Below are positions 5,517 through 64,000 of a stretch of DNA of 64,000 bases, piece by piece. The DNA comes from Raillietiella orientalis (taxonomy: Eukaryota): assembly GCA_036172245.1 (NCBI GenBank), contig JAYWIR010000076.1, forward strand, positions 62,001-126,000. The letters run 5' to 3'. The number at the start of each line of letters is the position of its first letter. Positions within the stretch are counted from its first letter, which is position 1. Below the pieces are notes generated by a model. The model was not told the origin of the DNA. It saw nothing but the letters and a program-made list of their open reading frames with translations, and ran no database searches. Position numbers and translations under genes: made by a program.

Positions 5517-5901
5517 ATTTCAATCTCCGCCTGCTAACAGGTAAGCCAGAAACACAAGAGAACGCGATGAACAAGTTGTGCGCCGCCATGCGTGCGCGCA
5601 ACTCGTTCGCGGGTGAGACGGGAATGGTCCGCAGCATCGACCACGTCTTCCTCGACGCTGACCTGTGTTCACGGGTCGGCAAACGGGGGAAGATTGCCTC
5701 GACGCTGTCGGACCATTCCCGGATAATTTTCGAGGTGCCGCCTCGGGACAAGTGACCGCCATCCAGGGACTTACGTCTCCCCGGGTACTGGACGCGACTC
5801 TCAGGTGCAAAGGTACACCTTCGCGAATACCTGATAGGCGTCACGCTCCGGAATCTCCATTGAAACCCGGTTCGTGGAACGTCTTCCGCCGGGATTCGGT
5901 G
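5517..5901 (+). mobile_element. Continuation of the subfamily B element (endonuclease C-half), ending at the 'GFG' junction
   Basis: Colinear with 41821-42244 apart from a short deletion; IDHVF and SDH motifs. Confidence 0.9.
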
Positions 5902-6106
5902 TTATCACCCGGGTACGCCCGGGGCGTTTATTAATAAACTTTACATGCGTGGTACAAGGCCCCACCACGGCCGTAAACACAGGACCTGTCGGGACACCGG
6001 GACGCAGTCCGGCGTGGCACTCCCCGACAGCGAAGGGGGATGGGGATAAGACAAAAAGTAAAATAAAAAGAAACAAACAAAACGAAGTTGGAGGGCAGGG
6101 AAGGGA

Positions 6107-9100
6107 TCACTGTTCGCTGTGGAGAGGGCCCATCCGTCGAAGGAAGCCCTTGAGGTCAGTCCTCATATTCCCCAGTTGGGGCCATCCGGCAGCTCTTCGC
6201 AAGAAGCGTTGGGCATATGGGATGACATCCCTCGCGTGTTGACCCACTCCTTCCTTGTTGGTGTCGCTTCATGCCGCCACGATGCCTCGGACGCAGCACA
6301 AGGTTGCAAGGGCTGCGGCTGCCTGCAGGGCGTCCTTCACGAAGAGGGGCCGAAGAACGTCTCTGAGGGTGGTGCCCGTAGGGAGCCCGTAGGGAGCCCT
6401 CCGACCATTTTGGGAACGGTCGTCCCGAACCGTTCCCAAAATGGTCGGAGGGCAGCACAATCCACAATAAGGTGGGAGATTGATTCCCGCTCCCCGCACC
6501 TGGCATACGCAGAATCCACAGCTCCCCTCGTCCAGTGCTAGCGGCTCGCGTTGAAGGGTAGACCCCAGTGCAACAGGAGCAACGCCGACTCTTTCCACTT
6601 AAGAGGCAGGATCCTGGATTCCTGAAGAAGCGGGGGCCAATTCAGCACATCCATAGGGATGGCCAGCAGCTCGCCCCATCTTCTTAGTCCTCGCGGCTGG
6701 ACGCTCGGGGTCGTGGCGTTTGCCAGTTCTCCTGTTGTCCAGCCGCTGATCAACTTTTCGCGTCCCTCGATGCAGCAGGAGACTTGCCACCTTGGCGTCC
6801 GGCTGCTGTGAAGTGCCCTCTTCAGGAATTGCAGCGCCGTAGCTAGACAGGTCGTCTCTGCCCACGTGCATCTTGCTGGACTCTCCAGGAGATTCCGCAG
6901 CGTGCAGCGGGCGTAGGGGCTGCATCGGAGACGATTCCACGTCTCGTGGCTTGTCTTGTTAACCACTGCCCACGTTCCAATATTTTCCTCCAGCCAGGCG
7001 GGGGAGTTGGCGGGGCAGCAAACCATCCAGCTGTTCTCCTCGGCCAATGTTGCCATGCGCCCGAGCAGTAGGCCGCATCTTCGCATCTTCCGGCCACGGC
7101 TGAGAAGAAAAGACGCGAGTCCATCGCACAGGGACACACGGCTGGCCAGGAGGCGGGCTGGAGTGCACCAAGGGGTGCACCACATCTTCACTGCGATGGC
7201 GAGGGTTCGCCACCGCAGCTGCTTCTCCACGCGCTCCACCGTCAGGAGGCCAAGACCGCCGTCCCGACGCGGAGCGCACAAGTCCTTCAGTGGGAATCGC
7301 GGCCTCCCCTTGCCCCAAAGGGCGATACGGAGGAGGTCCTTCGTCCTCTTCTTGGATTCCACGGTGGGAGGGCAAACAAAAAGCAAGGGGCGGAGGATGG
7401 GGGCCGCGAAGGCGTTCCAAACCGCGGCCCGTTCCGGCAAGTGGAACTTGCCTTCCAGGAACGGGCCGATCGCCGTCTCGACTTCTTGGAGGCAGCTGGA
7501 CCACGCTTCCGCAGGGGAGTAGTCCCTCAACGGCACACCAAGGTACTTGAAGCACCTCGCCGTGGGGATCCCCAGACGGACCCAGTCCTGCTGCCCTGCC
7601 CACGCCGCACCTGTTGGCACAACCGACGACTTCGCCCTGTTAATCTGCAGTCCGGTCCCGCGGCTGAGCAGATCGAAGAAGTCTCCGACCGCCTTTGCCG
7701 GGGTGGACATTGACAACAAGAGCAGAAGATCGTCGGCGTACGCTGCTACGGCGGGCGTCCCGGGGCACGAGCTCGGCAAGGGGGCCAAAGTCACCCTCTA
7801 CGCTCTCAGCACCAACTCAAAGTAGGTGCTAAAGTGCAGGGGGCTGAGGCTGTCGCTCTGCCTTATGCCTTGCCGCACCGGCACGCCATACACCTTTTGT
7901 CCACTGAAAGAAATTGAGATTATCGCGTTCCGCCAGCAAGAGCGCAGGTAGGTAATCAAGGAGTGTGGGAAGCCCATGCGACCCAGAAGCTCCAAGAGGA
8001 GTTCCTGGTCAACACAGTCGAATGCCTTATGGAGGTCGACTGCGATCGCTAAGGCCCCCTTCCCGCATGAGGGTCCCTTCCCTGTCCCACTGGCGGCCCC
8101 AAAGTAGGGTTGCAAATTTTCCCTTTCCCTTCTTTCTTACTCCGCTGCGCGTGAATCCATGTGCTCGCGAAGAAGAGGTTGTCCTCCATACTTCGCCCGG
8201 GAACAGGGTACGTCTGCTCCGGGCTAATTATGGAATTGGACACCTGCCCCAATCGCGAAGCCCACAGCCCGGCAATTAACTTGGCGTCCGTGTTCACAAT
8301 CGTGATCGGACGCCAGTTGCAAAGTTTTCTGAGGTCTCCTCCCTTCGGGAGGAGCCTCACCGTGACTGACCGAAACGAGGAGGGAACATCGCCTTCGTCC
8401 CGGATTCGCCTTGTCAGCTCGAGCACCAAAGGGGCCACCTCTTCCGCGAAACTCTGAAAGAACTCCGCAGGCAAGCCGTCCTCCCCTGACGCCTTACGCC
8501 TCTTGAGCCTTTAGATATAGGCGAGAATTTCACCGGTCGTGAAAGGCTCATCGAGGTTTTCTCTCTCCTCCTCCCCTATCGCCACGGAACCACTCATGAG
8601 CAATCGCCGCGAGGCGTCATGTTCCGGTGGTGTTTTGGCGTAAAGGGAGGAAGAAAAACACCGCACGAGATTCCGTACCGCACACGGGGACGAACGCTCC
8701 CGGCCCATGTCATCCAGCATGCTGGCTGACCCGGATTGCCAGGCTTGTCGCTCGGCTCCGGCGCGGTATTCGGCCAGGCGACGGACATTAGGGTTCCTCT
8801 CGTGACGACGCGCGTGCAAATACGCGCGTTCGTTGCGAGCCTTTTCGCCGAATCCCTGGGGCAGACGTTGCACAGGGAACTGTTCGCAGAACTCCCGGAC
8901 CGAGTCCTTAAATAGGTCCCAATCCGCGAGACTCTGGAGGGTGACGCCTCGCAGGAATTCGCGAAGATGTTCTTCCGCTCCTGACAGGCTCGTCCAGTCC
9001 CCTAACATACGCCAATCCCTGGATGGCGGTCCCTTGTCGCGCGGGCGCATCTCGAAAACTAACCGGGAATGGTCCAACAGCGTCGATCCAAGTGTCCCTC

Positions 9101-9726
9101 GTTTTCCGACCCGTGTGCACAGGTCTTCGTCGAGGAAGACGTGGTCCACGCTGCTGACCATCCCGCTTATTTCTGTCAACAAGTTGCGCGCGCGCATGGC
9201 GGCGCACAACTCGTTGATCGCGTTACTCTGTGCTCCGGGCTGATGTGAGAGCCCACGGACGTTGAAATCCCCTGCTATCAGACGCCTTTCGCACGTCCGC
9301 GTCCACCAGCTATTCGCGCTTCAAGGTTTCCAGTAACGCGTTGCGCTGCTGGTATCCCTGTTTACCGCTAGGAGCGTACACATTGGTGACGATAAGGTCG
9401 ATCGAATCGGACCATCTGAGAATCAGTTGGCCGATCCGTCCGTCGTCCCCAAAGCGCACGCCCTTCACGGCCGCGTTAATGGCTGGCTTTAGGAAGAACG
9501 CGACCCCACAAGTGTTGCGGGCGCCGCATCGCCAGTACAACCAGCCTCCCGCAATCGTTTCGATCTCCTGGGCGTCTTTTGCGGTGATCACGTGGATCTC
9601 CTGCAAAAGTACCAGGTCGAAATCTCGCTAAAAGGCGGCTGTATCTCGTCTGTTTCCGTCCTCGCGCAGCCCGTTAACATTCCAACTGGCCGCGCGGATC
9701 CGACGGCGACAGGCGAGTCCAGGTGT
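6107..9726 (-). pseudogene. ORF2 endonuclease/RT/Cys-His finger (several stops and frameshifts)
   Basis: ORF pieces with LQEIH, NVYAP, VDHVF, WRPITI, DLHKAFD, RQSDSLSP and AYADD. Confidence 0.9.
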
Positions 9727-11476
9727 TATTCCTGGAAACCTGACGGTGGAGCTCCCGCCAGCTTTTTGGGCGGGTCGCTGCACGGGGTTGGCGTCTTGCC
9801 CACCAACTCCCCATCCTTCTTTCGTGCCGACATCTCCGGCTGCCCGTGCGAAGGGGGTGTTGTTCGTACCTGTTGGCCCACATCCATTGGTGCGGGTGGT
9901 TCAGGTTCGGCGGTTTCAGAGGTCATTGCTGACCCCTGGTTACTCTCCTCCATCGGATTCGCCTCCTCGTCGGCTTCCGCACGTGGGTGATGCCCGACTT
10001 GGGCTCCCACGCTGCCATCCACTGGTTCCTCCACCATTGGATCCCCCTCGCGCGGAGGCGCAATGCACCTTCGGGGTTTCTGGGATTTTCGCCCCGCTTT
10101 CCTTGGTGGTGCTTCCGCAGAGGAGGATGCACTTCCGGCTTCCCGGTCCGACTCACCTGCGGGGGCCACTTTAGCCGCTGCCGGCCTACGCAACCCCTTT
10201 CGCGAAGGGTTCTCGCGTTCGGCAAGCGTTCCCGCAAGTTCCTCGGCGGCCTTCTCGAAGGCTGCGTCCTTGGTTTCGGCGATTTTGTCGACCGGCTGAC
10301 CCTCTTCGCAAACGGGGGGTGGGTTTTTGTGCGCATTCGTCGGGGCGGGAAAATCGATCGAAGCCGTATCGCCTCCGGTGGTGTCCGCGGGAATTTCAAT
10401 GCGCTCCAGCGTAACCGTGCATTCTCGGAAAGTTTTTACGTGCGACACGGATTGAGCTTTTGTTCCGGCCGCCGCCTTCTCTCCTTTCTTCAGGACATGC
10501 TTGCCCTTTTTCTCTTTTTAAGGTTTGAATAGCTGCCAGCCATGTTTTCCCTCTGCGGTTTCGGGAAGATTTTTCTCCGATGCCGCGCTTGGAGCTTGGG
10601 TTATTGGCAGCTTTTCTCGGTTAGTTTCACGGTTTTCTAATTTTTCTTTCCCCGCGCGTTTCGCTTGCGTCTTTTTGGCGGCCGAGGAAATTGGGGTGGG
10701 GCGTTTAGGGCACACGCGACGGACGTGTCCCTTCTCCCCGCACAAGTAGCATACGATGTTCGGGCACCTCTTACGAATGTGTCCGACCGCATCGCAGTAG
10801 CCGCAATACCGTGGCTTGCCAGCATACCAGAGGTCTACTGGTTCTCCCGCGACCTAAAGTTTGTGGGGTAGCTTCGCTTTGTTTTTTGGGGTGACGCGTG
10901 CCGAGCGAGGCCCCCGAAGTGGCGTCCGTAGCCCTGAAAGATTGTGTGCTACGGCCACAGCGCGTGTACGTCCCCGTACTTACTTAGTTCTGCTTTTACG
11001 GCAGTGCGCGTCATGCGCTTGGATATTCCTGACAAGTGGACCACCACCGAGTGGTCCATTGACACCGGGAAGATCTTACGGCTGTCCATGATCAGCGGGG
11101 TATTTATGAGGCGAACGGCTAGGCTGATGCTCTTGCACACAAGCTCAACCCGCTGCGCCCAGCTGAGCACGCACAGACCTTCCAGATCTTCCTCACGGAT
11201 ATTAGCATTTTGAAGCGCTCTGCTGAAAGAGCGCGCCGTGTTTCCTTCAAACAAAGGGCCTACCTTGTATACAAGCGATGGCTTCTATTCAGAAGCCCGA
11301 TAGGCGGCTTCCTCGGCCATAGCCTCCGCACTGAGGGCGGCGACCATTTCACTCCAAGTCTTCGCCGTCTGCGAAGACGTTCCAGGGACTATTGCCCCTA
11401 TAGCTGTAGGTCTCGTGGTAGGACTTGCCTCTTCCACAACTACATCCATCGCGGTGTCCTCTGGCACGGCTGCCAT
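9726..11476 (-). pseudogene. ORF1 gag-like protein (disrupted)
   Basis: Starts MAAVPEDTAM; knuckle CYLCGEKGHVRRVC; Pro/Glu-rich C-terminus ending GFQE*. Confidence 0.85.
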
Positions 11477-11589
11477 CGGACACCGACGACCCACACTTTA
11501 CACTTGACTACACTAAAAACTCCGGTTGCTTCCCAGACAAGCGCTGGCGGAGCGCCTAAAACACACGTCCACCCACACCAGGTTTCAGG

Positions 11590-12537
11590 TTGGCGGAACA
11601 GTTTACAATGACGGAGATCATCTCCGCCATCAGCAGGCTTAAGATTAGGAAGACACCAGGGGAGGACGGACTGCCCGCGGAGTTTTACAAACACTTCGCG
11701 CCAGAGCTTCCCCCCCTGATGGTAAGAATAAGCACGCTGATCCTCGAACACGGCGAAGTTCCCGCCTCGTTGCGGTTAGCAAAAGTACGTCTCCTGCCGA
11801 AGTCAGGAGACTAACGCAACATTGGAAACTGGCGTTCCTTCACAGTAGTGAATGCGGACGCAAAGTTGTATGTCAAGTTGTGGGCTGAGCGTTTGGGTCA
11901 AGTGGCCGCTTCCGTGGTGAGTCCCGAAAAGACCTACGCTGCTCCCGGACGAACCATGGATGCCAACCTGCTCCTCGCCAGCTCATGGTGGCAGTTGCAA
12001 CAACGCGTTGCACAGGATGGTCAAGGGAGCCTCGCACTCCCCTCTGACCAAGAAGACCAAGCAAAGGGTGGGATGGACTCGCCGGGAGCCTTTGCCGTCG
12101 CGGTCGATTTCCAGAAAGCATTCGACAGTGTCGACCAGGATCTCCTTCTCGAGCTCCTGTAACGCATGGGTTTCCCGGCCGTGCTCCAGTCTAACCTGCG
12201 ATCCTGCTGGCGCATCGCGTATATCAATATTGGTCCCAGCGGCCGGCACGTGTACGGCGTGCCAGTGAGACGCGGCATCCTGCAGGGTGACAGCCTGAGC
12301 CCCTTGCTCTTCAGCATCTACTTCGAGTTGGTGCTAAGGGCATACAGGGTAACTCTGGCAACTCTGCCGAGCTCGTGTGGCGGCACACCTTTTGTGTCGG
12401 CCTACGCAGACGATCCTCTGCTGCTGCTTCCCGGGTCCATACCGGCGAGTGCGCTCGAGGAATTCTTCGAGTTGCTGCGCCGTGGGACGGGCCTGGAGGT
12501 GAACAGGGCGAAGTCGTCTATGGTGTATGTTGGCTCG
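11590..12537 (+). mobile_element. Internal RT fragment of an L1/Tx1-like element, truncated at both ends
   Basis: PGEDG, DFQKAFD, QGDSLSP and AYADD; the RT sequence restarts at about 12538. Confidence 0.85.
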
Positions 12538-14949
12538 TCTAAGTTGCTTGCCAAGCTTTGGGCTGAGCGACTGGGACGGGTGGCGGAATCCGTGGGAAGT
12601 CCGGAGCCGACATACGCTGTTCCCGGACGAAGCATGGAGGCCAACCTGTTCCTCGCCAGCACATGGTGGCAGTTGCAACAAAGCGATGATCAGGGAGGTC
12701 AAGAGAATCCTGGATTCTCCTCTGACCAGTAAGGGGACGCCCTTCATGGAAGAACCGCGCCCGGTGACCTTGCGGTCGCAGTCGATCTGCGTAAAGCGTT
12801 CGATTGCGTCGACCAGGAACTGCTTCTGGAGCTCCTGGAACGCTTGGGATTCCCGGCCGTCTAACGGGCTTACCTGCGCTCCTGCTGGCGCTTCGCTCTA
12901 ATAAACATCTCTTTTAGCGGCCGGCACGTGTACAACGTGCCGGTTCGGCGTGGCATAAGGCAGGGTGACAGTCTGAGCCCCATGCTCTTCAGCATGTACT
13001 TCGAGCTGGTGCTGAGGGCATACAGGGAGACTCTTGCAACCCTGCCAAGCTCGTGTCCCGGCACGCCTGGCGTGTCGGCCTACGCCGACGACCTTCTGCT
13101 CCTGCTCCCCGGGTCCACCCCGGCGTCGGCGCTCGAAGATTTCTTTGAGTTGATGCGCCGCGGGACGGGCCTCGAGGTGAACAGAGAGAAATCTTCCATC
13201 GTTCCATCATCAACACAACTTTTCAACCATACGGCGTGGGTCGGACGGCCGGAGTGGATCCGCTTGGGGATCGCCACGGGCAGGTGCTTGAAGTACCTTG
13301 GCGTTCCGTTGGCGGACTTCTGCGTTGCAGAATCCTGGTCCGACCGTCTCCAAAAGGTGGAGTTGGCGATCGGCCCGTTGCGGAACGGCAAGTTTTTCTT
13401 GCAGGTGCGGGCCGCGGTGTGGAACGCGTTCGCGGCCCCCCTCCTTCGCCCCTTACTTTTTGTTTGCCCCGCCCCTTCCATCATACGGAGACGGACCAAA
13501 GCTTTCTTGTCGACTGCCCTTGGGGCACAGCGAGATCGCGTGTCTGACTGAAAGACTGTTGCGCTCCACGCAGGGATGGTGGCTTGGGCCTTCTTACGTT
13601 AAAGTGCATCCAACTTCAAACAAGAATTCGAAAGTTAGCCCTTGCCGCTAGCTTATGGATGACGCCATTGTGCGATCCGGCACGGCTCCTCGCCAGAAGA
13701 GCGACCGGTTGCGCAGGATTGTCCTCGATCCTCGTGGCCTACCAGCGCAGCCTCTCCAGCTGTGGTCCCCCTTTGCGCCAGATGGTCGCCCTGATGAGGG
13801 AGAATACCTAAATCTCCTGCATCCCCGCGTACTGCACTGCGTGGCTTCAGGAGTCAGCTTCCGCGTGGGCTAAGATCAAGGGCACGAGCGAGGCGGAATA
13901 CAACTGCCTACGACGAGGACCGTACGCTCGACAGCCGCTGCAGGATATCATCAACACGCCCCGGAAGTTCCTGTGGGCTTCTTTCAGCCCCCTTGTCCCC
14001 GTTCTGTCCTACCCTAAAAACAGTAGGAGCAGCAACGAGCTGGCATCGTGGGAAGTGTGCTGCCTTATCCGAGGCAGGAAAAAACCTTTAAAGGCGTGGA
14101 CGAATCGGGAGCTCACGGACGCTGCCACCCCGAGCGTCCCGCCTCACGGACTTGCGCGCTGGGGTGAGCTGCTCGCAATACCTCCGGAGGAGGTGGAGTG
14201 TCCCCCAGCGTATTGGGATTGCGGCACACTTCCGTTGAAGTGGCAGGAGACGGCGTTGCTATTTCTGCACTGGGGACTGTTAAGCAGAGCACGCCTGTCT
14301 CACTGGACACTGGGGAATATGGATGCCAGCTGTGTCGAGTGCGGAGAAAGAGAAACCTTCCCGCATCTCACCCTCGAGTGTGTCGCCCTGGATGGACTCT
14401 GGAGTAGAATCTTCCCAATCCTCCATCTTCCAGTAGGCGACCCTAAGGAAATTTACCGTCGCCTCTTTCTGCGTGACGGCCTGCGCCCCGCTGCGTCTCT
14501 AGCAGTCCTCTGCTGCGTGCGCGGCATTGTGCAAAGGTGGCACGCCAGAAGAAGAGGCCCAAGATGCAGGGACGCCATCCACTGCACAACGATCTCTTCA
14601 GAGACGGCGACAAGGTGGCGTCTACCTTTCACAGTTAAAGCAGAACTTGACTGCATCCTCAACAGGATACGGAGGACCGACCCAGGCGCCCAGTGATCCC
14701 TTCCCTGCGCCCCCCTCTCCCCATACAACTGTTTCCCTCCCCGTTATCTCTCTTTTTGTTTGTTGTTGGTTCAGTTTTCCCTTCCCATGCGCCTCGGGAA
14801 TGGACCTAACCGGTCTATGCACCGCAACCGACACGTCAACCAAGTTAAGAAAACCAAGTGTTTCCCACAATTAACTTTTGAAAGACTTTATTATCTAATT
14901 TTTGTAGAAAATTAGAATAATAAATGCCCCGGCATATCCGGGTGGCAAA
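12538..14949 (+). mobile_element. 5'-truncated element, subfamily G (RT to 3' end; ORF2 stop at 14696)
   Basis: DLRKAFD, RQGDSLSP, AYADD and CVECGERETFPHLTLEC; ends AATAAATGCCCCGGCATATCCGGGTGGCAAA. Confidence 0.88.
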
Positions 14950-16660
14950 CGTCGGCTGGAGCCGAGCATTCCCGGTCCTGGTCGTCGAGCAGAACTGTCG
15001 CCCCTGACTGCCAGACCTGGCGCTCGGCCTTAGCCTTGTACTCGGATGATCGACCAACGACCGCGCGCCTGGAAAAGGAGCGGGCCTGCAGAAAATCTCT
15101 GCTGTTGGCTACGCCCTCTCCGAAGCCGCGTGGAAGCTGTTGCAAGGGAAACCGGCAGCAGAACTCGAGGACCGATCTTTTCAGATCGTCCCACTTTTCG
15201 AGCTCACTTATGGCAAAGCCGATGAGGTACTGACGAAGATGCTCAGCCGCCTCCGGGTGGCTTAGCCAGTCTGCCGGCATCCTCTAAAAACAGTTTGGAG
15301 GCCCCTTGCCTGGCGGGAGCAACTCGAACTCGAGCCTGTTGTGGTCTGAAAGCACAGACGGCACGGGACCTCTCCGACCCACTCAACAGAGCAAGTGTTC
15401 ATCAAGGTATACGTGGTCCGGCGTTGCTGCCATAACAGGGTCGCTAGCGAACAAGTTGCACGCGTGCACGGACGCGCACATCTCTTTCGCTAGCGAGTTT
15501 TCCCTTTTGTGGGATCTATTCTCGGAGGGAAGGTGGACGTTAAAGTCCCCCGCAATGAGATGGGCCACAGTAGAATGAGATCGAGTGAGCCACTGGCTTT
15601 GAAGGGTACCGAAGAACTCAATCCTTTTGGCCCATCGTCCAGCACCGCTCGGCGCGTACACGTTGGTTACGACAAGGTCGATCGAGTCCGACCACTTGAG
15701 TACAAGCTGTCCCACTCGGCCTTCCGTGTCGAAACGAACGCTGCGCACCGCTCTTGCCAAAGTTCCTCGCACGAGGAAAGCGACGCCGCACCTATAAAGT
15801 AGCGTTCCGCCCGCGCGCCGTTGGATTTCGGCAGCCTGCTCACCGGAGATGCTGTGAATCTCCTGCAGGAGCGTCAAGTCGAAGGCGCTCCGAGCGTCAG
15901 CCACTAGTCGCCTCTTCTCCTCGTGTTGGAGCCCGTTGACGTTCCAAGACGTTACGGCAACACGACGAGAAGACGCGATTGCCCTCATCACGGCTGGGAA
16001 AGCGAGGCCGTGGTGCTCGCCTCACCCGGCGAGCGGGCAGTAAGCAGCACGACGGGCTGGAGGGCGCGGTCGCCACCGGCCTCAACTGTGCTGCACGTAA
16101 TCGGGTGCTCCTCCCCGGGTGCAGAACCTGTGGGTTCCGGTGTGAGCACTCCTTGCTCCGCGGCGAGTGTGTCACGCCTCAGGGGATTCAGCCCTGCGGG
16201 CGCTCGCTCCCGCGCGAGTTACGCGTCGTTCAGCTGCGTTATGGGACTCCTTTGCGAAGTCTGATGCTCGCACGATCGACGTGCGCTTGCATCCGTCCGA
16301 TTGCACCGGAATGGTCTTCTCGGCGGTCACAGAAGCGGACTTCCACGCGTTGAAGGCGCTGGCTTTTTCCTTGGAAGAGGCATAAGCCGCGCGTGTTTTC
16401 GTATTCCCGCGACTGCTTTTTCCTTTGGAAGAGCTCAGGGATGGATGTTGCGAAGCTTTTTTTGGAGATTTTTCTTTCCTCCTCTCCACAACCTTCCATT
16501 CGCCTTCGCGATTTCCGGAGGCTTCCGCGACAGTAGTTGCGGAAACCTCCGGTATTTTCGCTGCGTTCTCTGGGGGCGTTGCTTTCGCTACGCCTTTTAA
16601 AGGCGGCAACGGAGTCACCTTCTTGACAGTCGGGAGATCGCTCCTCTCCTGCCCAGTCGG
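14950..16660 (-). mobile_element. 3' part of an F-related element (ORF1 C-terminus, endonuclease, linker); host of the tandem pair
   Basis: ORF 15383-15991 with WNVNG, LQE, NVYAP and GDFN; TGATG overlap at 15986-15990; joins 27928 across the TSD. Confidence 0.88.
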
Positions 16661-52098: not shown

Positions 52099-53911
52099 TT
52101 GTCACCCGGGGACGCCCGGGGCGTTTATTTGTAAACTCTACATACGTAGTACGAGGCCCCACCACGGCCGTAAACACGCGACCTGTCGAAACACCGGGAC
52201 GAAGCCCGGCGTGGCACTCTTCGACAGCGAAGGGGGATGGGGATAAGACAAAAAGAAAAACAAAAAGAAACAAACAAATAAAAGTTGGAGGGCGGGGAAG
52301 AGATTACTTTTCTCTGTGGGGAGGGCCCATCCGTCGAACGAAGCCCTTGAGGTCAGTCTGCATATTCCCCTGTTGGGTCCATTCGGCAGCTCTTCGCAAG
52401 AAGCGTTGGACATACGGGATGACATCCCTCGCTCGTGGACCCACTCCTTCATTGTTGGCGTCGCTCCATGCCGCCACGATGCCACGGACGCAGCACAAGG
52501 CTTCGATGGCTGCGGCGGGCTGGAGTGCGTCCTTCACGAAGAGGGGCCGAAGAACGTCTCTGGGAGTGCTGCCTGTAGGGAGCCCGAGGGTCGTCCCGAA
52601 CCGTTCCCAAAGGGGTCGGAGGGCAGCACAATCCACAATAAGGTTGGAGAGCGATTCCCGCTCTCCGCACCTGACACACGCAGGATCCACAACTCCTCTT
52701 GTCCAGTGAGAGCGGCGTGCGTTGCAGGGTAAACCCCAATGCAACAACAGCAACGCCGACTCTTTCCAATTAAGGGGCAGGATCCTGGATTCCTGAAGAA
52801 GCGGGGGCCACTTCAGCACATCCATAGGGATGACCAGCAGCTCGCCCCATCTTCTTAGCCCTCGCAACTGGAAATCGGTGTCGTGGCGTCGGCCAGTTCT
52901 CCTGTTGTCCAGCCGCTGATCAACTTCTCACGTCCCTTGATGCAGCAGGAGACTTGCCACCTTGGCGTCCGGCTGCTGTGAAGTGCCCTCCTCAGGAAGG
53001 GCAGCGCCGTAGCTAGGCAGGTGGTCTCTGCCCACGTGCATCTTGCTGGACTCTCTAGGATCTCTAGGAGATTCCACAGCGTGCAGCGGGCGTAGGGGCT
53101 GCATCGGAGACGATTCCACGTTTCGTGGCTCCTCTGGTTAACCGCTACCCACGATCCAATATTCTCCTCCAGCCAGGCGGGGGAGTTGGCGGGGCAGCAA
53201 ACCATCCAGCTGTAATCCTCGGCCAATGTTGTCATGCGCCCAAGCAGTAGGCCGCATCTTCGCATCTTCCGGCCACAGCTCAGAAGAAAAGACGCGAGTC
53301 CATCGCACCGGGACACACGGCTGGCCAGGAGGCGGGCCGGAGTGCACCAAGGGGTGCTCCACATCTTCGCTGCGATGGCGAGGGCTCGCCACCGCAGCTC
53401 CTTCTCCACGCGCTCCAGCGTCAGGAGGCGAAGACCGCCGTCGCGACGCGGAGCGCACAAGTCCTTCAGAGGCACTCGGAGCCTCCCCTTGCCCCAAAGG
53501 GCGATACGGAGAAGGTCCTTTTTCCTCTTCTTCCATTTCACGGTGGGGGGGGCAAACAAAAAGGAAGGGGCGTAGAATGGGGGCCGCGAAGGCGTTCCAA
53601 ACCGCGGCCCGTTCCGGCAAGTGAAACTTGCCTTCCAGGAACGAACTGATCGCCGTCTCGACTTTTTGGAGGCAGCTCGACCACGCTTTCGCAGTGGAGT
53701 AGTCCCCCAACGGCACACCAAGGTACTTGAAGTACCTCGCCGTGGAGATCCCCAGACGGACCCAGTCCTGCAGCCTTGCCCACGCCGCATTTATTGGCAC
53801 AAGCGACGACTTCGCCCTGTTAACCTGCAGTCCGGTCCCGCGGCTGAGCAGATCGAAGAAGTCTCCGACCGCCTTTGCCGGGGTGGACATTGGCAACAAG
53901 AGCAGAAGATC
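52099..53911 (-). mobile_element. Subfamily C element, 3' portion (from just after YADD to the 3' end)
   Basis: Colinear with 5902-7731; 3' UTR and terminal hairpin. Confidence 0.9.
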
Positions 53912-55893
53912 ACGCGATCCTTTCGATCTCCTGGGCGTTCTACGCGGTGATCACGTGGATCTCCTGCACGAGTGCCGGGTCGAAGTCACGCAGGGTGTCG
54001 GCAGTGTCCCGCCTGTTGCCGTCATCGCGCAGCCCGTTGACGTTCCAGCAGGCTACGCGTATCCCACGGCGACAGGGGAGTCCAGGTGTTAATCCTGGGA
54101 AATGGGCAATGGGGCTCCCGCCCTCTTGTCGGGCGGGACGCTAGGAGGAGGGGGTGCGTCGCGCACCGCTTCTCCCCCCTCCATGGAGGACGATTCGTCG
54201 TCGGGGCCTTGCAGAGGAAGTAGGGGTTCAACCACCTGCACATCGTCCTCCATGGTCGCTAGCTGTACGGTGTCGGGAATGAGATATTCCCAGTCTCGCC
54301 TTTCACGCTGCTAGCTTCCCCCTCAGGGGCCGATTCATCCGCCTCCTCATTGATCCGGATGCGTTTCCTGGGATTCTAAGACTCACGTCCCGTCTTCTTT
54401 GCTGGAGTCCTTAATTGAAAGGACGCACTTTCAACGTCCGGACAGGCCTCACCTGCCCCCGGAGCCTTCCTCGCGGCCGGCCTTCGGAGGGGTTTTCGCA
54501 AGTTCTTTTCACGGTTCGTCAGTTCAGCCGTGAGTTCTTCCACGGCCTGCTGGAAGGCGGCCTCCTCGATCGCGTCGAGCGCGGCGCGCGTTTCCCCCTC
54601 TGTTTCGCCAGAGGGTTCACCATCGACCGTCGCGACTTCGGCGGACGCGAGGGGTTGGATTGCTCCCCCAATGGTTGCATTAAGTGCCTTTACACGTTCT
54701 AATTTTACCGAACACGCGCGGAGCTTTTCGCGGCACGGTTTTTCGCGCTGCGTTTTTGTTTTCACCGCGTTTCGTTCGGGACTCCCGGGTTTTCTTCGTG
54801 GCTCTACCGTCTGCCAGCCGTCGCCGTCACCAGCGTCGTCGGGAGTGTTCTTAACCGACGTTTGCTGTGAGGGCTTCGGGACTGGCATCTGGGTGTTAAC
54901 AGCCTGTTTCTGTGTATGCGTCTCTCCCGTGCGTTTCCCCTTTGCCTGTTTGGCGGAGGATGGGGACGGCATTTTTCTTCTTGGCCACACCTTACGGATG
55001 TGGCCCTTATTTCCACATAAGTGGCATTGGTTGTTAGGGCACCGGTTTTTTAGATGCCCTGTGGCATCGCAATGGCCACAATACTTGGGATTACCCACGT
55101 ACCAAACATCGACTTTTTCTTTGCCGATATTCAGTTTGTGGGGAAGCCCACCATTCTCTGGTAGGGTGACGCGGGCTGCGGCCATCACACTGAATAGCCT
55201 TTTGTACGTTCGGAAGACATTGGGTTTGGCCCAATACGCGTGCACACTACTATGCTTCGACAACTGCTTATGGACGCTGGTTTTGTCCATTCAGAGGGAT
55301 ACGCCCGTGAGGTGGACCACGACGGAGCGGTCCTCCATCACAGGGAAGATCCTGCGGCCGTCCACCGTAATAGGGGTGTTCAGCAGTCGCTGCGCCAGAC
55401 TTGCCTCTTTGCATGTCAGCTCAACTCGCTGGCCCCCACTAAGGACGGATAGGGCTTCAAGGTCTTCCTCCCTCACGTTCAACCTTTGCAGCTCCATTTC
55501 GAAGGAGCGTCCAATTTTTCCATCAAACACACTGCCTAACTTATAGATCAGAGACGGCTTGTAGCCGCTGTCCTTGTAGGCAGTCTGCTCCGCTACTGCA
55601 GCCGGGGATGGTGCAGCAACGACGTCACTCCAGCTCCTCGCCAATGGCGAAGAGTGTCGCGAAGGGGCGGTTGCCCCCAATTCCGATGGGGCAACTGCCC
55701 CGGATTCCATGGGGGCAGATGCTCCCACTTTCATTGGTGGAGGAGAGCATGTCGCTTCTCCTCCTGCAACTTCCATCGCGGTGTCCTCAGGCATTTCTGC
55801 CATTGGACACCGGTGCTGCCACACACCAGACAGCCAACGAAAAGCTTTCCACTAACCAGTCCGTTGAGCGATGCCAAACCACGTCCGCTCCGT
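53912..55893 (-). mobile_element. Subfamily I element, 5' portion (ORF1 55803-54089 and start of the endonuclease)
   Basis: CGHCDATGHLKNRC and CHLCGNKGHIRKVW; WNVNG; GCGGACGTG 5' motif. Confidence 0.88.
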
Positions 55894-55909
55894 AGAACGA
55901 CACGGGGCA

Positions 55910-56736
55910 GTGTGAACGCAAACTGTGCTCGGAGAGGGGAGTAGGCAACCCTCGCGCACCTCGCGCACGCTCGCCGCGAATCAACGCGAAGTCTCCACAA
56001 ATTCCGACGGGGTTAGGCCTGGCGTGGAGGCTTCACACGCATGCAGCACGACAAACGACGGTGGCGACCATCCCCTCTAGCCAGTCGTGCTGCTCTCCGT
56101 CTGCTCGCCGGACAAAGCAAGCAAAAAGCCGCCACCTTCCCAGCAGTAATGCGGGGAATCGCGTCTTCTCGTCGTCTGTCCTAACGTGTTGGAACGTGAA
56201 CGGACTACAGAACGACGAGAAGAGGCGATTAGTAGCCAACGCCCTGCGCCCCTTTGATTTTGCGCTCCTGCAGGAGATTCACGTAATCTCCGACGAGCAG
56301 GCAGCCGAAATCGAGGAGCGCGCTGGCGGAACGCTACATTGGCGGTGCGGCGGCGCACACACGTTCGGCGTCGCGTTCCTCGTTAGAGGAAATATAGCGT
56401 AAGCGGTGCGTAGTGTTCGTTTCGATGACGACGGACGGATAGGCCAGCTTGTCATTAAGTGGTCCGAGTCCATCGATCTCGTCGTTACGAACGTCTACGC
56501 ACCGAGTGGCTCTCGCTACCTCGAAGAAAGAGTAGCTTTCTTTGGTGAGGTGCAGAGCCACTGGCTCAACAACTCCGGCTTCAAAGTGGCGCACCTCGTC
56601 GCTTGGGACTTCAACGTCCGCCTGCTCTCCGACGATTGGAGCCGCCCGAGGGAGCGCGCGCTGCCCATCGAGATGTGCGCGTCCGTGCACGCCGCCAACT
56701 TGATGGTCAACGAACCTGGAATGGAAAGATCGCTTC
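55910..56736 (+). mobile_element. Subfamily F fragment (ORF1 C-terminus, TAATG at 56147-56151, endonuclease)
   Basis: Near-identical to about 2458-3243. Confidence 0.9.
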
Positions 56737-57282: not shown

Positions 57283-57731
57283 GGGTAATCGGCAAAGGAT
57301 CTTCCTATATGGAAGTAGCCGCCAGATTGCCCCAATTGACCAAGCATACGAAAAGAGATCTCGCTAGCATACGCCGACGGTTTACAGACGCTACCCAACA
57401 GCGCACCCGGTGAACCTTTCCCCTCGCCCCCTTCAAATTTTTTTCTTTTTTCCACTTCCGCCCAATTAGGCTCCGGAACATTTTAGGTGCTCTCTATTTG
57501 AATCCCCGTGAGTGCGGAGCTTCACCAAGGACCCGTTACCCCTCCCTCCAGATTTTTTTTTTTCTTTTGTGTGTGTTTTATCCCTCTACTCCCTCAGTGT
57601 TGTTGGAAGCGGTTTGTTAACCAGGCCTGAGTGCCGCTAACTTCTCTTTGCTCCTTGTCATTTCTTTGGTTAACGACATCGTCTTTGACAGGTTTATTTT
57701 CAATAAGCGCCCCTGCGTGACCGAATGAAAA
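57283..57731 (+). mobile_element. Subfamily F 3' end (ORF2 terminus and 3' UTR)
   Basis: Similar to 5072-5516, including TAGGCTCCGGAACATTT. Confidence 0.85.
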
Positions 57732-58154
57732 ACTTCATCGTCCGCCTGCTGTCGGAAGCGCCCGACATCAGAGCACAACTGGTCAACGAGTCGTGTGCGT
57801 CGATGCACGCGCGCAACTTGTTGGCCAATGAAGCCCACGTGAGACGCAGAATCGACCACGTGTTCCTCGATAACCACCTGTGGACGCGGGTGGGGACTCG
57901 AGACGCACTTGCGTCGGAGCTGTCCGATCACCATCGGCTAGTGTTCACCATCCATCTGCGCGACAGAGGTCCATCCACCGAAGCGTGGCGCCTGCTGGGA
58001 GACTGGTTGCGACTCGCAGGAGCGGGCGAATATCTGCGTGCATTCCTGCGTGGTTGCGAACTGCAGACTCTTGCTCAATGGGACAAAATAAAACGCTCAG
58101 TGCGAGAGTCCTGCGACCAGTTTCCCCTCCATCAACATCCTTCAAGTTACGGCA
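57732..58154 (+). mobile_element. Subfamily J endonuclease C-half, bounded by the 'DFN' and 'GFG' junctions
   Basis: VRLLSEAPDIR, RIDHVF and SDH; homologous to 33358-33781 (reverse complement). Confidence 0.88.
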
Positions 58155-59415
58155 ATGCCACCCGGGTACGCCGGAACGTTTATTAAAAAACATTTTTTCC
58201 GTCATTCAAGAACGTGGTACAAGGCCCCACTGAAGGCCACGCAATATTAGACCCGCCGGAACACCGGGACGCAGCCCGGTGTGGCTCTCCTCGGCAGTAG
58301 AAGGGGATGGGGAGGAAACAAAAATAAAATAAAATGAAAAAACAACAACAAATGGAGTTTGGATAGCCGGGAAGGGATCACAGAGAACTGCTGGGAGGGA
58401 CCATCCTTTGCAGGATGCCTTCGAGTTCCATTTTCATTCTTCCCATATAGGGCCATCGTGTAGCTCTCTGCAGGAAGCGAACAGCATACTCGATAACGTC
58501 CCTCACGATGCAATCTTCATCTTCGGCATCACTCCAGGACGCCACGATACCACGAATGTAGCAAAGAGCTGCCAAGGCTAAGGCAGGACTGAGGGCGTCC
58601 CGCACTAAGAGAAGACTTTACACGCCTCTGGGGTTGTCACCATCCGGTATACCAAGGGCCGTTCTAAGACGATACCAAAGAATCCGGACGGCAGAGCAAT
58701 CAACTAAGAGGTGGGGGAGCGAAGCCCGCTCCCCACACCTGGCACACGCAGGATTTACTCTTCCCCGCGTCCAGTGGAAGCGGCGCGCGTTGCAGGGTAG
58801 ACCCCAATGCAGCCACAGAAGCGCCGATTCTTGCCACTTAAGGGGAAGAATCCTGGATCCAAGTAGAACCGGGGGCCACCTCAGGTCGTCCAATCGAATG
58901 CCGAGCAGCTCGCCCCATCTTCTTTATCCACGCGGCTGGAGACTAGAAGTCGTCGCATCGGTCAACTCTCCCATGGTCCAGCCGCTCATCATCTTCTCTC
59001 TGCCTGCGATACGGCAGCGGACTTGCCACCTTGGCTTCGGGCTTTAGTGAAGCGCCCTTTGGAGGAAGGGCATCGTCGTAACAAGGGGTGTGCCTTCCGC
59101 CCACGTGCAACTCGGTGAAATTTAATAATTTCACGCAGAGTTCGGCGGGCGTAAAGGCCGACTCGCAGGCAGTTCATCCGGTCTTCGCACTTCTGGTTCT
59201 GCTTGGTTTAGGTGCCAGCAGTCTCCTTCAGCCAAGCGGAGGAGTTGGCGGTGTCACAAACCATCCAGTCGTTCTCTTTCGTCAGGGTTGCCATGCAACC
59301 GAGCAGTAGACCGCATCTTCGAATCTTCTGGCCTGGGCACAGAAGAAACGATGCGAGTCCTTCGCAGCGGGACAAACGCCTGGCCAGAAGGCGGGCCGCA
59401 GTGTACAGTACGACG
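58155..59415 (-). mobile_element. Subfamily D 3' portion
   Basis: Reverse complement is colinear with about 48090-49353. Confidence 0.9.
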
Positions 59416-60008
59416 TTTTCACCCGGTCAAACCGGTGCGTTAATTGAAAAACTAACAGTATTTGCGGTACAAGGCCCCGCTGCGGCCAATAGTTCTATGG
59501 AGCCGTCTGGTGGTCGGTGTACAGACCGAAGCAAAACTCCACGTCAACGGATGAGGTTAGGGAAAAAACGAAAATGAAAAAAATTAAAGAGTAGAAACAC
59601 TGGTCATTGGGAGGGCAAGAAAGGGATTACTGTCCGTTTTGTGGAGCTTCCATCTTTGCAAGATGTCGACGAGGTCCTGGTACAGATTTTCCAGGTGGGG
59701 CCATCGGGATGTTATTTGCAGAAAGCGAGCTGCATACTCCATGGCATCCCTTTCGTTAACATTCTCTGCTTCTTCGGATCCACTTAAAGCTGCCACAATA
59801 CCGCGTACGCAGCAGAGGGCTGCTTTAACAGGGGCTGGCTGCAGGACGTCCCGCACGAAGAGGAGCCGATAAACGTCTCTGGGAAGACTACCTTCCAGGA
59901 TCCTTAAGGTGAAAGCGAAACGGTCTCACAGGGGCCAGAGGGCAGCACACTCATCTAAAAGTTGCGGAAGGCTTTCCCGTTCCCCGCACCAGGAACAGTT
60001 TGCGGCAT
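59416..60008 (-). mobile_element. Short 3' fragment of a further subfamily (H)
   Basis: ORF2 C-terminus homology, pseudoknot motif and terminal CCGGGTGAAAA. Confidence 0.8.
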
Positions 60009-60009
60009 T

Positions 60010-60727
60010 CCGACGGATGACCTAAAGTGGCCCCCATTGTTCATTGATTCATCAATCCTCCCCTAAAGTGGCAGCAAACGGAGCTGTTGTTGTTGCACTG
60101 GGGTCTTCCCTGCAACGCGCGAGGCCACCACTGGACGTGGGGGAATGTTGAACAGAACTGTGCAGTGTGCGGGGAGAAGGAATCCCTCCCCCATCTGTTA
60201 GTGGACTGCGGTGCCATCCGGCCCTTGTGGGAACGTCATGCTACGGCACTCCCTATGCCGGTCGGCTGTACCCCCAGAGACGTTCTGAGACTCCTCTTCG
60301 TGCGATAAGCCCTGACACCAGCCTCAGCCCTGGCAGCACTTTGCTGCCTTGTGGCCGCGTAGAGCGCAGCCAACAGAGGAAGCAGGCACAGGGAACCCAT
60401 CGTACACGCTGGTAGATACCTGCGAATTGCGATCGGCTGGTCCTATCTAGGAACAATGAAGAGGGACCTTCAGGGAATCCTCGAAAGGATGGTCTCTTCC
60501 TCCAGCGGGCTGTGATCCCTTCTTGGCCCTCCAAATAGTTTCTTTTCGTTAATTTCTTTTCTTTTTCTTTTCGTTTTCACACCCTACCCCCTCCGCTGCC
60601 AAGGAGAGTCAAGCCGCCTTGAGAGCCGGCTTCCCGGCAGGTCCACAGAACTATTGGCCATAGCGGGGCCTAGTACCGCGAAAACATAGTGTTCAGGAAT
60701 AAACGCCCCAACGAGACAGGGTGAAAA
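60010..60727 (+). mobile_element. Short 3' fragment (Cys/His finger to 3' end)
   Basis: CAVCGEKESLPHLLVDC; ends AATAAACGCCCCAACGAGACAGGGTGAAAA. Confidence 0.85.
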
Positions 60728-62264
60728 CTTCCCCGTGTCGTTCTAGAGAGCGGACGTGGTGTGGCATCGCTCCAAGGAATGGTTAGAGGGAAGCTTTTCG
60801 TTAATTGTCTGGTGTGTTTGAGCACCGGTGTCCCATGGCAGCAATGCCTGAAGACACCGCGATGGAAGCTGGAGGATGAGAAGCGACATGCTCTCCTGCA
60901 CCAATGAAAGTGGGGCGTCCGCTTCCACGTAATCCGGGGCAATTGTTCCATTGTAATCGGGGGCAACCGCCCCTTCGAGACTCTCATCGCCATTAGCTTT
61001 GAAGGCTCCGGAGGCAGGTAAGGCCGATCCAGACATCGAAAGTGCGTCCTCTTCAGCGTAGGCGCCACCAAAGAAGACGGGACGTGAGTCTTAGAATCCC
61101 AGGAGGCGCATCCGGATCAATAAGGAGGCGAATAAATCGGCCCCGGAGGAAAAAGTCGGCAGCGTGGGAGGCAAGGGTGGGAATATCTCATTCCCCGACA
61201 CCGTGCAGCTAGCGACCATGGAGGAGGATGTGCAGGTGGGTGAACCCCTACTTCCTCTGCAAGGTCCCGACGACGAATGGTCCTTAATGGAGGAGGGAGA
61301 AGCGGTGCGCGACGCAACCCCTCCTCCTAGCGTCCCGCCCGACAAGAGGGCGGGAGCCCCATTGCCAATTTCCCAGGATTAACACCTGGACTCCCCTGTC
61401 GCCGTAGGATACGCGTAGGCTGCTGGAACGTCAACGGGCTGCGCGATGACGGCAACAGGCGGGACACAACCGACATCCTGCGTGACTTCGACGTGACACT
61501 CCTGCAGGAGATCCACGTGATCACCGCGTACAACGCCCAGGAGATCGAAAGGATCGCAGAGGGTCGTCTGTGTTGGCAATGCGGCGCTCGCAACACATGT
61601 GGCGTCGCGTTTCTTATCATGCCAGCAGTCGCTTCCTTCGTCAAGGACGTACGATTCGACAAGGACAGTTGGGTTGGCCAGCTTATCCTTAGGTGGTCCG
61701 ACTCGATAGATCTTGTCGTGACTAATGTGTACGCTTCGATCGGAGGACGCCGGTACGGGGAACGTTCCCGGTTCCTCGATACCCTGAAGCACGACTGGCT
61801 GGAGGAAACAAACGTACGAAAGGCACATCTGATCAGTGGGGATTTCTACATCAGCCTGCTCTCGGGTGTGCCTTGCAGACAAAAAGACGCAACCACCGAG
61901 TTACGCGCCGCTATGCATACGCGCAACTTGCCGGGGGACCTAGCAAAAATTACTCAAAGCGTAGACCCCGTCTTCCTTGACGCCGACCTGTGCCCACGGG
62001 TCGGCAGACCAGGGAAACTTTCGTCAACGCTATCGGACCACTTGCGGTTGATAATAGAGATTATGCCACGCGACAAAGGACCACCATCCAGGGCGTGGCG
62101 TATACCAGGGGACTGGACGCGCATCTCCGGTGCAGCGGAACATCTCCGTCAGTTCCTCTGAAGTGTCATACTCCGAAACCTCGAAGACTGGGACCGCATG
62201 AAGATCTCGGTATGCGAGTTCTGCGAGAATTTCCCTTTGCACCGCCTGCCCCAGGAATTTGGTG
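60728..62264 (+). mobile_element. Subfamily I element, 5' portion with an internal ORF1 deletion (about 61000), cut at the 'GFG' site
   Basis: Matches 55910-55650 and then 54460-53915 (reverse complement); EN ORF 61493-62161. Confidence 0.88.
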
Positions 62265-64000
62265 TTACAACCCGGGTACGCCCAGGACGATTATTAAAAA
62301 AAACTCTACAATTGCGGTACCAGGCCCCGCTCACGGCCTTATGCACACGATCTACCGGTACGCCGGGACGCAGCCCGGCGTGGCACTCCCCGGCAGCGAC
62401 AGGGGATGGGGAAAAAACAGAAGTGAAATAAAAAAACCACAAACAAACAAAAGAGGTTGGAGGGCAGGGAAGGGATCATCGTTCGCTGAGAGGAGGGCCC
62501 ATCCGTTGAAGGAAGCCCTCGAAGTCCATCCGTATCTTCCTTAGTTGGGGCCATCGAGCAGCTCTCCGCAAGAAGCGTTGGGCATATGGGATGACATCCC
62601 TCGCGTGTTGACCCACTTCTTCCTTGTTAGTGTCGCTATATGCCGCCACGATGCCACGGACGCAGCACCAGGCTGCAAGGGCTGCGGCTGGATGCAGGGC
62701 GTCCTTCACGAAGAGGGGCCGAAGAACGTCTATAGGGAACTGCCCGTAGGGAGACCGAGGATCGTACCAAATCGTTCCCAAAGGGGACGAAGGGCAGCAC
62801 AGTCCACAATAAGGTTGGAGAGCGATTCCCGCTCTCCGCACCTGACACACGCAGGATCCACAACTCCTCTTGTCCAGTGAGAGCATAGTGCGTTGCAGGG
62901 TAAACCCCAATGCAACAACAGCAACGCCGACTCTTTCCAATTAAGGAGTAGGATCCTGGATTCCTGAAGAAGCGGGGGCCACTTCAGCACATCCATAGGG
63001 ATGACCAGCAGCTCGCCCCATCTTCTCAGTCCTCGCAACTGGACGCTCGGTGTTGTGGCGTCGGCCAGTTCTCCTGTTGTCCAGCCGCTGATCAACTTCT
63101 CGCGTCCCTTGATGCAGCAGGAGACATGCCACCTTGTCGTCCGGCTGCTGTGAAGTGCCCTCCTCAGGAAGGGCAGCGCCGTAGCTAGGCAGGTCGTCTC
63201 TGCCCACGTGCATCTTACTGGAATCTCCAGGAGATTCCGCAGCGTGCGGCGGGCGAAGGGGCTGCATCGGAGACGATTCCACGTTTCGTGGCTCCTCTGG
63301 TTAACCGCTACCCACGTTCCAATATTCACCTCCAGCCAGGCGGGGGAGTTGGCGGGGCAGCAAACCATCCAGCTGTTCTCCTTGGCCAATATAGCCATGC
63401 GCCCGAGCAGTAGGCCGCATCTTCGCATCTTCCGGCCACGGCTCAGAAGAAAAGACGCGAGTCCATCGCACTGGGACACACGGCTGGCCAGGAGGCGGGC
63501 TGGAGTGCACCAAGGAGTGCTCAACATCTTCGCTGCGATGGCGAGGGTTCGCCACTGCAGCTGATTCTCCACGCGCTCCAGCGTCAGGAGGCGAAAACCG
63601 CCGTCGCGACGCGGAGCGCACAAGTCCTTCAGAGGGACTCGGGGCCTCCCCTTGCCCCAAAGGGCGATACGGAGGAGGTCCTTCGTCCTGTTCTTGGATT
63701 CCACGGTGAGGGGCATACAAAAAGCAAGGGGCGGAGGATAAAGGCCGCAAAGGCGTTTCAAACCGCGGCCCGTTCCGGCAAGTGAAACTTGCCTTCCAGG
63801 AACGGGCCGATCGCCGGCTCGTCTTTTTGGAGGCAGCTGGACCACGCTTCCGCAGGGGAGGAGTCCCCCAACGGCACACCGAGGTACTTGAAGCACCTCG
63901 CCGTAGGGATCCCCAAACAGATTCAGTCCTGCTGCCCTGCCCACGCCGCACCTATCGGCACAACCGACGACTTCGCCACTGTTAACCTGCTGTCCGGTCC
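62265..64000 (-). mobile_element. C-like element, 3' portion, running off the window
   Basis: Colinear with 5902-7660 and 52099-53840. Confidence 0.9.

Follow-up and report, generated by a model that had tools for sequence, protein, structure and literature searches.

Why should one long interspersed nuclear element (LINE) after another end at the same base of the coding sequence of its relatives? The question is raised by a 64,000-nucleotide (nt) stretch of the Raillietiella orientalis genome (assembly GCA_036172245.1, contig JAYWIR010000076.1, positions 62,001 to 126,000), here called the window, with coordinates counted from its first letter. In four places in it the plus-strand second open reading frame (ORF2) of one LINE is joined to the reverse complement of the 3′ terminus of another. 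An earlier sequence-only reading had claimed that these junctions fall after the first base of the codon following G-F-G, in the linker between endonuclease (EN) and reverse transcriptase (RT), with the incoming element always antisense. We found the four junction strings exactly, at 5901/2, 52098/9, 58154/5 and 62264/5 (J1 to J4), and each lies one base past the codon aligned to G311 of G-F-G, with the insert antisense, as judged by tblastn with the ORF2 of a reference element and, for J1, by match to a sister copy.

Junctions at the G-F-G codons

The reference element is the best-preserved copy in the window, which we label R1. Its EN occupies ORF2 residues 32-237 and its RT starts at residue 478 (Pfam), which places residue 311 in the linker. 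The codon aligned to G311 (in LHSGFG/EG, the slash marking its end) ends at 52097, 58153 and 62263, so that J2, J3 and J4 lie one base past it. At J1 a 38-nt deletion just upstream of 5901 halted the BLAST alignment; there the final 13 bases, CCGGGATTCGGTG, match CCGGATTCGGCG of the sister copy R1.

Each host is a different LINE. Host B reaches J1 with its second piece (ORF2 amino acids [aa] 172-311; 5517-5901, +; BLAST, tree), ending ...GGATTCGGTG, and is followed by ins1, a full-length degenerate LINE with its 3′ terminus at 5902 (5902-11586, −; BLAST). Host C, also called el3, has a complete 5′ end, ORF1 and ORF2 aa 1-311 (49365-52098, +; BLAST, tree); it ends ...GGATCCAGCG at J2 and adjoins ins2, the 3′ part of a LINE running from aa 1129 down to 684 (52099-53911, −; BLAST). 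Host J (ORF2 aa 172-311; 57732-58154, +; tblastn, tree) ends ...AGTTACGGCA at J3, next to the LINE 3′ part ins3 (58155-59406, −; BLAST, tree), which is sister to another element, el2, and 87.7% identical to it. Host I, with a complete 5′ end, an ORF1 remnant and ORF2 aa 1-311 (60731-62264, +; tblastn), ends ...GAATTTGGTG at J4, where ins4, again a LINE 3′ part, begins and runs off the window (62265-64000, −; BLAST).

The 3′ terminus found at these junctions consists of AATAAA, then CCCGG..CCGGGTG, then a tail of 4-6 nt without poly(A); the tails are GATAA, GACAA, GGCAT and TGTAA. AATAAA lies 20-25 nt ahead of the terminus. All elements of the window outside one group, called X-type below, share the order AATAAA, CCCGG, 4-6 nt, CCGGGTG and a short variable tail, without poly(A). 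The five pairs of the 3′ stem-loop are conserved with no compensatory changes, so this structure gets no support from covariation.

Eleven copies in the window can be aligned at the G-F-G site: 4/11 are broken at the same base and 7/11 are intact, among them R1 itself (42234-42243). A distant-family pair at 16655-27927 is not alignable there and was left out of the count. If insertion were uniform over a 5,644-nt element and on either strand, the chance of three further matches on the same base and strand would be about (1/11,288)^3, or roughly 7e-13 (our own arithmetic). The G-F-G observation is thus confirmed, and it is far beyond chance.

Independence of the insertions

The sequence-only reading had held that the hosts belong to four different subfamilies and the inserts to its C or D type, and had named a host phylogeny tracing all junctions to one ancestral insertion as one of the results that would overturn it. 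Such an ancestral event would have made a single composite of a host EN half and an antisense insert, later copied by segmental duplication. Self-BLAST alignments that run straight through the junctions are what this would leave behind, and they exist: 5517-7731 against 51676-53911 at 86%, 51161-53838 against 61327-64000 at 82%, and 51678-53347 against 57734-59406 at 68%. One ancestral insertion would, however, give equal divergence of both sides, and the two sides differ. Host-side identity between junctions is 56-75% over 380 nt (67-75% among J1, J2 and J4), whereas insert-side identity over 1200 nt is 88-90% among J1, J2 and J4 and about 70% against J3.

The host tree, built by maximum likelihood from the 424 nt leading up to the site in all 11 copies, points the same way. 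Three of the broken hosts have an intact copy as their sister: R1 for host B (support 100/99), ins1 for host C (97/96) and Q, also called c33359, for host J (100/100). Host I branches by itself, next to R1 and B. The broken state requires four changes on this tree. A tree constrained to unite all four broken hosts is rejected (log-likelihood difference 285.3, approximately unbiased test p-AU 0.00098), as is one that unites B, C and I (difference 108, p 5e-7). Precise excision is not known for LINE insertions. With three broken hosts having intact sisters, a single copied composite is the least probable of the alternatives that we weighed, and scarcely credible.

The four inserts belong to a single clade of six elements, called C/D in the sequence-only reading, which splits into two sister subclades, {ins1, ins2, ins4, R1} and {ins3, el2}. 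Within the window four of the six members sit at G-F-G, or five of six if an 11-nt remnant after el2 is counted. We conclude from these sequence comparisons that the hosts are different lineages and that the same base, on the same strand, was hit on no fewer than three separate occasions, and on four by the simplest account; the claim of independent, site- and strand-specific insertion is upheld.

Inversion or twin-priming-like events within single elements, or an error in assembling repeats, might also set sense and antisense LINE segments side by side. At J2 the halves could indeed come from one element type: host C is 92.6% identical to the 5′ half of ins1, and ins2 is 90.5% identical to the 3′ part of ins1. 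Against this, ins1 is complete and its own aa 1-311 region is only about 78% identical to host B, and the block to which ins2 belongs has its own 5′ part. Twin priming puts the inverted piece at the 5′ side and not against the 3′ terminus. A misassembly would join homologous stretches, not exact element termini, and the four junction contexts are distinct in sequence. We therefore regard these explanations as highly improbable.

Proposed integration mechanism

The junctions are probably best explained by integration that is specific for site and strand and has a LINE coding motif as its target. A sequence-specific nick in the host sense strand would start target-primed reverse transcription. 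At the joints the host sense strand passes directly into the complement of the incoming element, beginning with the 3′ terminus of that element, as target-primed reverse transcription from a sense-strand nick after ...TTCGGCG would produce. In the proposed scheme the EN would nick a resident LINE on its sense strand, immediately 3′ of ...GGATTCGGCG, which comprises the G-F-G codons of the EN-RT linker and one further base. The freed 3′-OH would then prime copying of the incoming RNA from its 3′ terminus, and the new copy would lie antisense, splitting the host ORF2 between EN and RT; with the nick on the sense strand, this orientation would always result. Specificity would reside in the EN protein, a second cut would fall about 10 bp away, the site would stay usable after a hit and so give head-to-tail tandems, and the RT halves of the hosts would have been lost later, for example by recombination between same-direction inserts.

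That the family integrates in this general manner is seen from R1. A perfect 10-bp duplication, CCTCCAAGGC, stands at its two ends (39510-19 and 45165-74), and its host el2 is collinear on either side; the R1 family thus inserts by canonical target priming and duplicates about 10 bp of its target. Judging from the near-intact state of R1 and its perfect duplications, the family may have been active recently.

Specificity might instead be borne by RNA: read-through flank RNA of copies already at G-F-G would anneal to the nicked target, with an EN that is only weakly specific. Annealing of flank RNA is said to be how R1Bm works. Every copy at G-F-G has the target sequence directly downstream, the elements lack poly(A) and have short tails that vary, and a junction at 14942-14948 may share 7 nt between element tail and target, all of which would suit such priming. 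No microhomology was found, however, between the insert tails at G-F-G and the host beyond the nick, which argues mildly for protein-based specificity; the position of AATAAA so close before the terminus argues that transcripts end there; and a transduced flank is seen in no copy. We consider RNA-borne specificity unlikely, and the EN-directed nick remains the reading that we prefer.

Host flanks and target specificity

Several observations weigh against the proposed integration at G-F-G. All the evidence comes from the one 64-kb window. It holds four left host halves ending at aa 311 and no right half starting at aa 312, and neither a 5′ junction nor a target-site duplication at G-F-G was seen in it for any event. 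Complete ins1 adjoins a different subfamily, K, at its 5′ end, and the 5′ end of the block formed by ins2 and a neighbouring element, M, adjoins an X-like element. The exact GGATTCGGCG sites in R1 and ins1 are unoccupied, as are five of the six one-mismatch sites, the sixth being host B's own junction site. R1, a member of the same clade as the inserts, sits elsewhere, in the sense direction and with its clean 10-bp duplication, so the specificity is not absolute. Finally, TT[CG]RRNK, with the nick after the last base, has an exact fit at no more than 4 of the 13 3′ junctions, and the window contains it 464 times.

Some of these points can be narrowed. Where the other end of the insert lies within the window, the host half from aa 312 onward was found after none of three inserts; both junctions together with a duplication were found for relatives at other sites only (R1, 10 bp; an X-type element, 9 bp). 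The duplication and second cut proposed for G-F-G are accordingly modelled on these relatives, the right host halves being absent. The fragment that flanks the 5′ end of ins1 is not host B's lost half: K, an RT fragment of aa ~405-725 (11587-12533, +; BLAST), has 59.7% aa identity to R1, as against 80-84% for host B. The missing halves are also not peculiar to G-F-G. For antisense insertions the host half beyond the 5′ end of the insert is missing at 11587, 55926, 29272 and 12541 (these include the element P and the insert at 14948); where the insertion is in sense and its far flank readable, as for X (host B) and R1 (el2), neither half of the host is lost. Later deletion by recombination between same-direction inserts is a possible cause of the losses, and so is instability of the long inverted repeats formed by an antisense copy and its host.

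Absence of the right halves, in 3/3 observable cases, is also what a break with loss of DNA would leave, and the G-F-G region might be fragile or already broken, with LINE cDNAs captured there without use of their own endonuclease. Neither single-base precision nor the same orientation four times over would be expected of capture at breaks. Every insert starts at its exact 3′ terminus, and relatives in the window carry canonical duplications. Capture at a fragile point is in our judgement very unlikely, and we retain nicking at the G-F-G codons as the explanation.

The joint of ins1 with K (11577-11596, GGTTTCAGGT) falls at another G-F pair, in G-F-R codons at aa ~405, about 94 residues further along ORF2, and lies ten bases from a position fitting the same nick pattern. 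Ins1 therefore seems to be flanked by two distinct target sites. The break in ins2 falls within the YADD box of RT, at D684, and is followed by M, an element in the same direction (53913-55925), from its aa 76; this joint is either a 1.8-kb internal deletion or another junction.

As for the target itself, exact matches to the 10-mer GGATTCGGCG occur in the window only at the two intact G-F-G sites. With up to two mismatches there are 109 matches, barely above the shuffled mean of 88. From the free exact sites in R1 and ins1 it follows that the G-F-G site is not saturated, which is expected if these two elements are young. The motif TT[CG]RRNK was chosen after seeing the data. Besides its exact fits, one more junction fits within the ambiguity of an A-run; at four others one or two substitutions separate the junction from a motif still present in an intact related copy. 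We rejected it as a common nick motif sufficient by itself, as it is too frequent to explain the precision alone. With a frequent motif and few exact fits, real recognition must be longer or involve something more.

Other recurrent target sites

The G-F-G junctions account for 4 of the 13 recognisable 3′ termini surveyed in the window. Two more, at 5516 and 57731, belong to X-type LINEs, which have about 50% aa identity to R1. Both of these 3′ ends (2/2) are in sense orientation and stop at the same nucleotide of the codons for the EN catalytic GDFN, in hosts B and J, which are not sisters in the host tree. One X-type element (653-5516, +; ORF1 and ORF2 matches) interrupts host B, whose first piece covers ORF2 aa 1-173 (133-651, +; closest to R1, 79.8% aa identity by tblastn, and blastn). 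It has a clean 9-bp duplication, ATTTCAATC, at 644-652 and 5517-5525. The other is a 3′ fragment (57284-57731, +; BLAST) that ends where the surviving part of host J begins. The GDFN site is intact in at least 13 other copies.

A third reused target may be motif A of RT, which contains TTCG and is broken twice in antisense. Q is broken after K-A-F-G (32933-32960, −); Q itself (32933-34200, −; tblastn, tree) retains an intact G-F-G. N, an RT half of aa 585-1126 (36491-38119, −; tblastn), is broken at K-A-F-D (38106-38119, −). The end joined at motif A differs between the two: in Q it is the 3′ end of P, a 5′-truncated LINE (29272-32932, +; tblastn) that adjoins antisense VDLHKAFG, and in N it is the 5′ end of el2.

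El2 is itself interrupted by R1. Its 5′ part, with the 5′ untranslated region (UTR) and ORF1 (38120-39519, +; tblastn), adjoins the antisense KAFD of N through GTCGAAAGCT. Its 3′ part, with ORF2 and 3′ UTR (45165-49353, +; tblastn, 3′-end comparison), terminates in ...GGGTGGCAT at 49353. Next comes the 11-nt spacer CGCCGAAAGCC (49354-49364, no strand assigned), which reads GCTTTCGGCG on the nicked strand and is antisense to G-GCT-TTC-GGC-G, and then the complete 5′ end of el3; the spacer may be the surviving copy of a target-site duplication. The 10-mers flanking el2 differ by two transitions and could be a decayed duplication, in which case el2 and el3 would represent two successive insertions at one site.

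This is one of three head-to-tail pairs in which a 3′ terminus lies 0-11 nt from the next complete 5′ end: 49353/49365, 35965 (−) and 60727/60731, the last with a 3′ end directly ahead of the 5′ end of host I. For the ends at 14948, 59418 and 35965, the adjoining sequence is either unrelated or the 5′ end of a following element in tandem. The distant family, with 28% aa identity to R1, forms a further head-to-tail pair (16655-22280 and 22288-27927, 91.7% identical to each other), flanked and separated by CCTGCCC (16648-16654), CCTGCCG (22281-22287) and CTGCCC (27928-27933). Two insertions into a single target, with 6-7 bp of it duplicated, would be expected to leave such repeats; no empty target site for this tandem was found within the window. 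Taken together, the G-F-G, GDFN and other recurrent sites show that the LINEs of this nest generally return to sites already used, to the exact nucleotide.

Two other arrangements were seen. At 14938-14948 the 3′ tail GGGTGGCAA of a plus-strand element overlaps by about 7 nt the ...DVCH codons of an antisense host in the tblastn reading, which may be microhomology priming or chance. The 3′ parts of two 5′-truncated LINEs lie head to head at 59997/60003 (59418-59997, −, and 60003-60727, +).

Element content of the window

The window has 57% G+C and is nearly all nested non-LTR (long terminal repeat) retrotransposons according to self-BLAST and fragment maps, and the fragment maps show nesting into existing copies. 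R1 (39521-45164, +; 5,644 nt) is near-intact and lies in sense orientation between the ORFs of el2. Its ORF1 is open (458 aa, 39564-40940), and its ORF2 (1129 aa, 41310-44699) has a single TAA at 43038-40. Pfam matches in ORF2 are to the APE-type EN (Exo_endo_phos, E 2.9e-10) and RT (RVT_1, E 7.7e-14); two zinc-finger matches are sub-threshold, zf-RVT in the tail of ORF2 (E 0.0027, 18.8 bits against a 27.5-bit cut-off) and the zinc knuckle zf-CCHC in ORF1 (E 0.00097, 19.6 bits against 20.8). By these sequence features the window is a nest of APE-type LINEs, with a CCHC ORF1 and an ORF2 carrying EN, RT and zf-RVT. A zf-RVT tail and a CCHC ORF1 are not diagnostic of the Tx1 clade. A code change behind the in-frame stops in RT was considered and rejected: R1 has a TAA, and the two copies of the distant family have TAGs at places not homologous to one another, as in ordinary decay.

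Complete and truncated elements occur side by side. Ins1, R1, el2, el3, host I and X are complete at the 5′ end, and ins3, P and the pieces at 59418 and 60003 are 5′-truncated.

Comparison with known elements

Target-specific APE-type LINEs include Tx1L, which inserts into Tx1D, the R1 elements of 28S ribosomal DNA, and TRAS and SART, which insert into telomeric repeats. The elements of the window resemble them in having an APE-type EN and an RT, in independent insertion at a fixed nucleotide and orientation of a multicopy target, and in repeated use of that site. They differ in that the target is the coding sequence of a sister LINE and not an RNA gene, a microsatellite or a DNA transposon. 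The clade in the window is also not absolutely specific, R1 being elsewhere, and several families of the nest appear to have a site of their own. Tandem arrays of site-specific LINEs arise by re-insertion at a duplicated target, as in the rDNA R1 elements and in GilM and GilT of Giardia. The head-to-tail pairs described above (el2, CGCCGAAAGCC, el3; the distant family; 35965; 60727), with spacers of duplication length, are alike, but these tandems are embedded in other LINEs and interspersed with antisense nested copies. L1 twin priming, or 5′ inversion, likewise produces adjoining sense and antisense LINE segments; there both derive from one RNA, whereas here an exact 3′ terminus adjoins an internal point of a different element.

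In the green algae Coccomyxa and Chlamydomonas, Zepp and Zepp-like (ZeppL) L1 elements insert into copies already present, and each chromosome has a single cluster of them, at a putative centromere, according to the passages available (PMC8226300, PMC3446292, PMC9940879, CENH3 preprint). Nested Zepp clusters are described as GC-rich relative to the genome (Blanc et al., 2012; PMC3446292), and ZeppL arrays as mostly 3′ ends resulting from 5′ truncation (PMC8226300). The window is like them in being a LINE cluster built by nesting, a likeness of cluster architecture. It differs in that the junctions are antisense and inside ORF2 codons, whereas those passages give tandem arrays of 3′ ends and no nucleotide-level target; several hosts and inserts here are complete at the 5′ end, and the elements lack poly(A).

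Searches for relatives returned few. In protein databases there were 8 matches in the near length range and 16 among longer proteins; one, unnamed, is close at 69% identity, and the remaining matches, among them plant and amphibian L1-like proteins, have at most 31%. Of the sampled words, 0.27 are present in the Logan contigs of one sequencing run (X1); in an alignment of these contigs to R1 at 80% likeness the eight pieces listed are 254-618 nt long; among the eight joints listed none changes strand, and among the 6 of 272 loose ends listed none is near 42243, the pieces being short. A protein-profile scan of metagenome contigs gave 61 pattern matches and no relative, and a scan of them with the 3′-end DNA motif gave five loci, which we take as chance matches because they have no other similarity to the window. 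Our literature search found no LINE described as having the ORF2 codons of another LINE as its target; the original descriptions of Zepp were outside its reach, so a target site for Zepp may be described there. What appears to be new is the use of conserved codons of a sister LINE as a target, in antisense and at one base, with other lineages using other codon motifs.

Implications

The sequence-only reading had pictured a guild of LINEs that use the conserved coding motifs of sister LINEs as a safe harbour and inactivate them. The guild part gains from a second recurrent site, at GDFN in sense for both X-type ends, and from the antisense breaks at motif A; safe harbour and inactivation stay conjectural, although an ORF2 broken between EN and RT must lose its function. 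The whole picture is plausible, and strengthened by these two further sites, though unproven. In its fullest form it would make the window a self-assembling LINE island, the work of a guild of site-specific lineages each nicking its own short sequence in conserved ORF2 codons: G-F-G in antisense, the EN active-site GDFN in sense, and K-A-F-D/G of RT motif A in antisense. We put this forward tentatively, as a real possibility to which we would give somewhat less than an even chance.

If it is true, every new copy would kill a competitor and at the same time bring fresh targets, and insertions would not leave the island, possibly a centromere-like cluster of the Zepp type. With targets only where LINEs already are, such clusters would grow by themselves and genes would be spared. 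For the pile-up of ZeppL into one cluster per chromosome, the passages available from PMC8226300, PMC3446292, PMC9940879 and the CENH3 preprint give no nucleotide-level reason; an EN that recognises LINE codons would supply one. The site GGATTCGGCG, with the nick before the following A, is also a short, testable DNA substrate for how an APE-type LINE EN gains sequence specificity. The repeated nesting at the same site suggests a way in which islands of transposons could arise on their own. As an example of competition between transposons it would be unusually clear, with the target placed in sequence that the victim needs to function, and an arms race would follow in which a host copy escapes only by changing codons that it needs.

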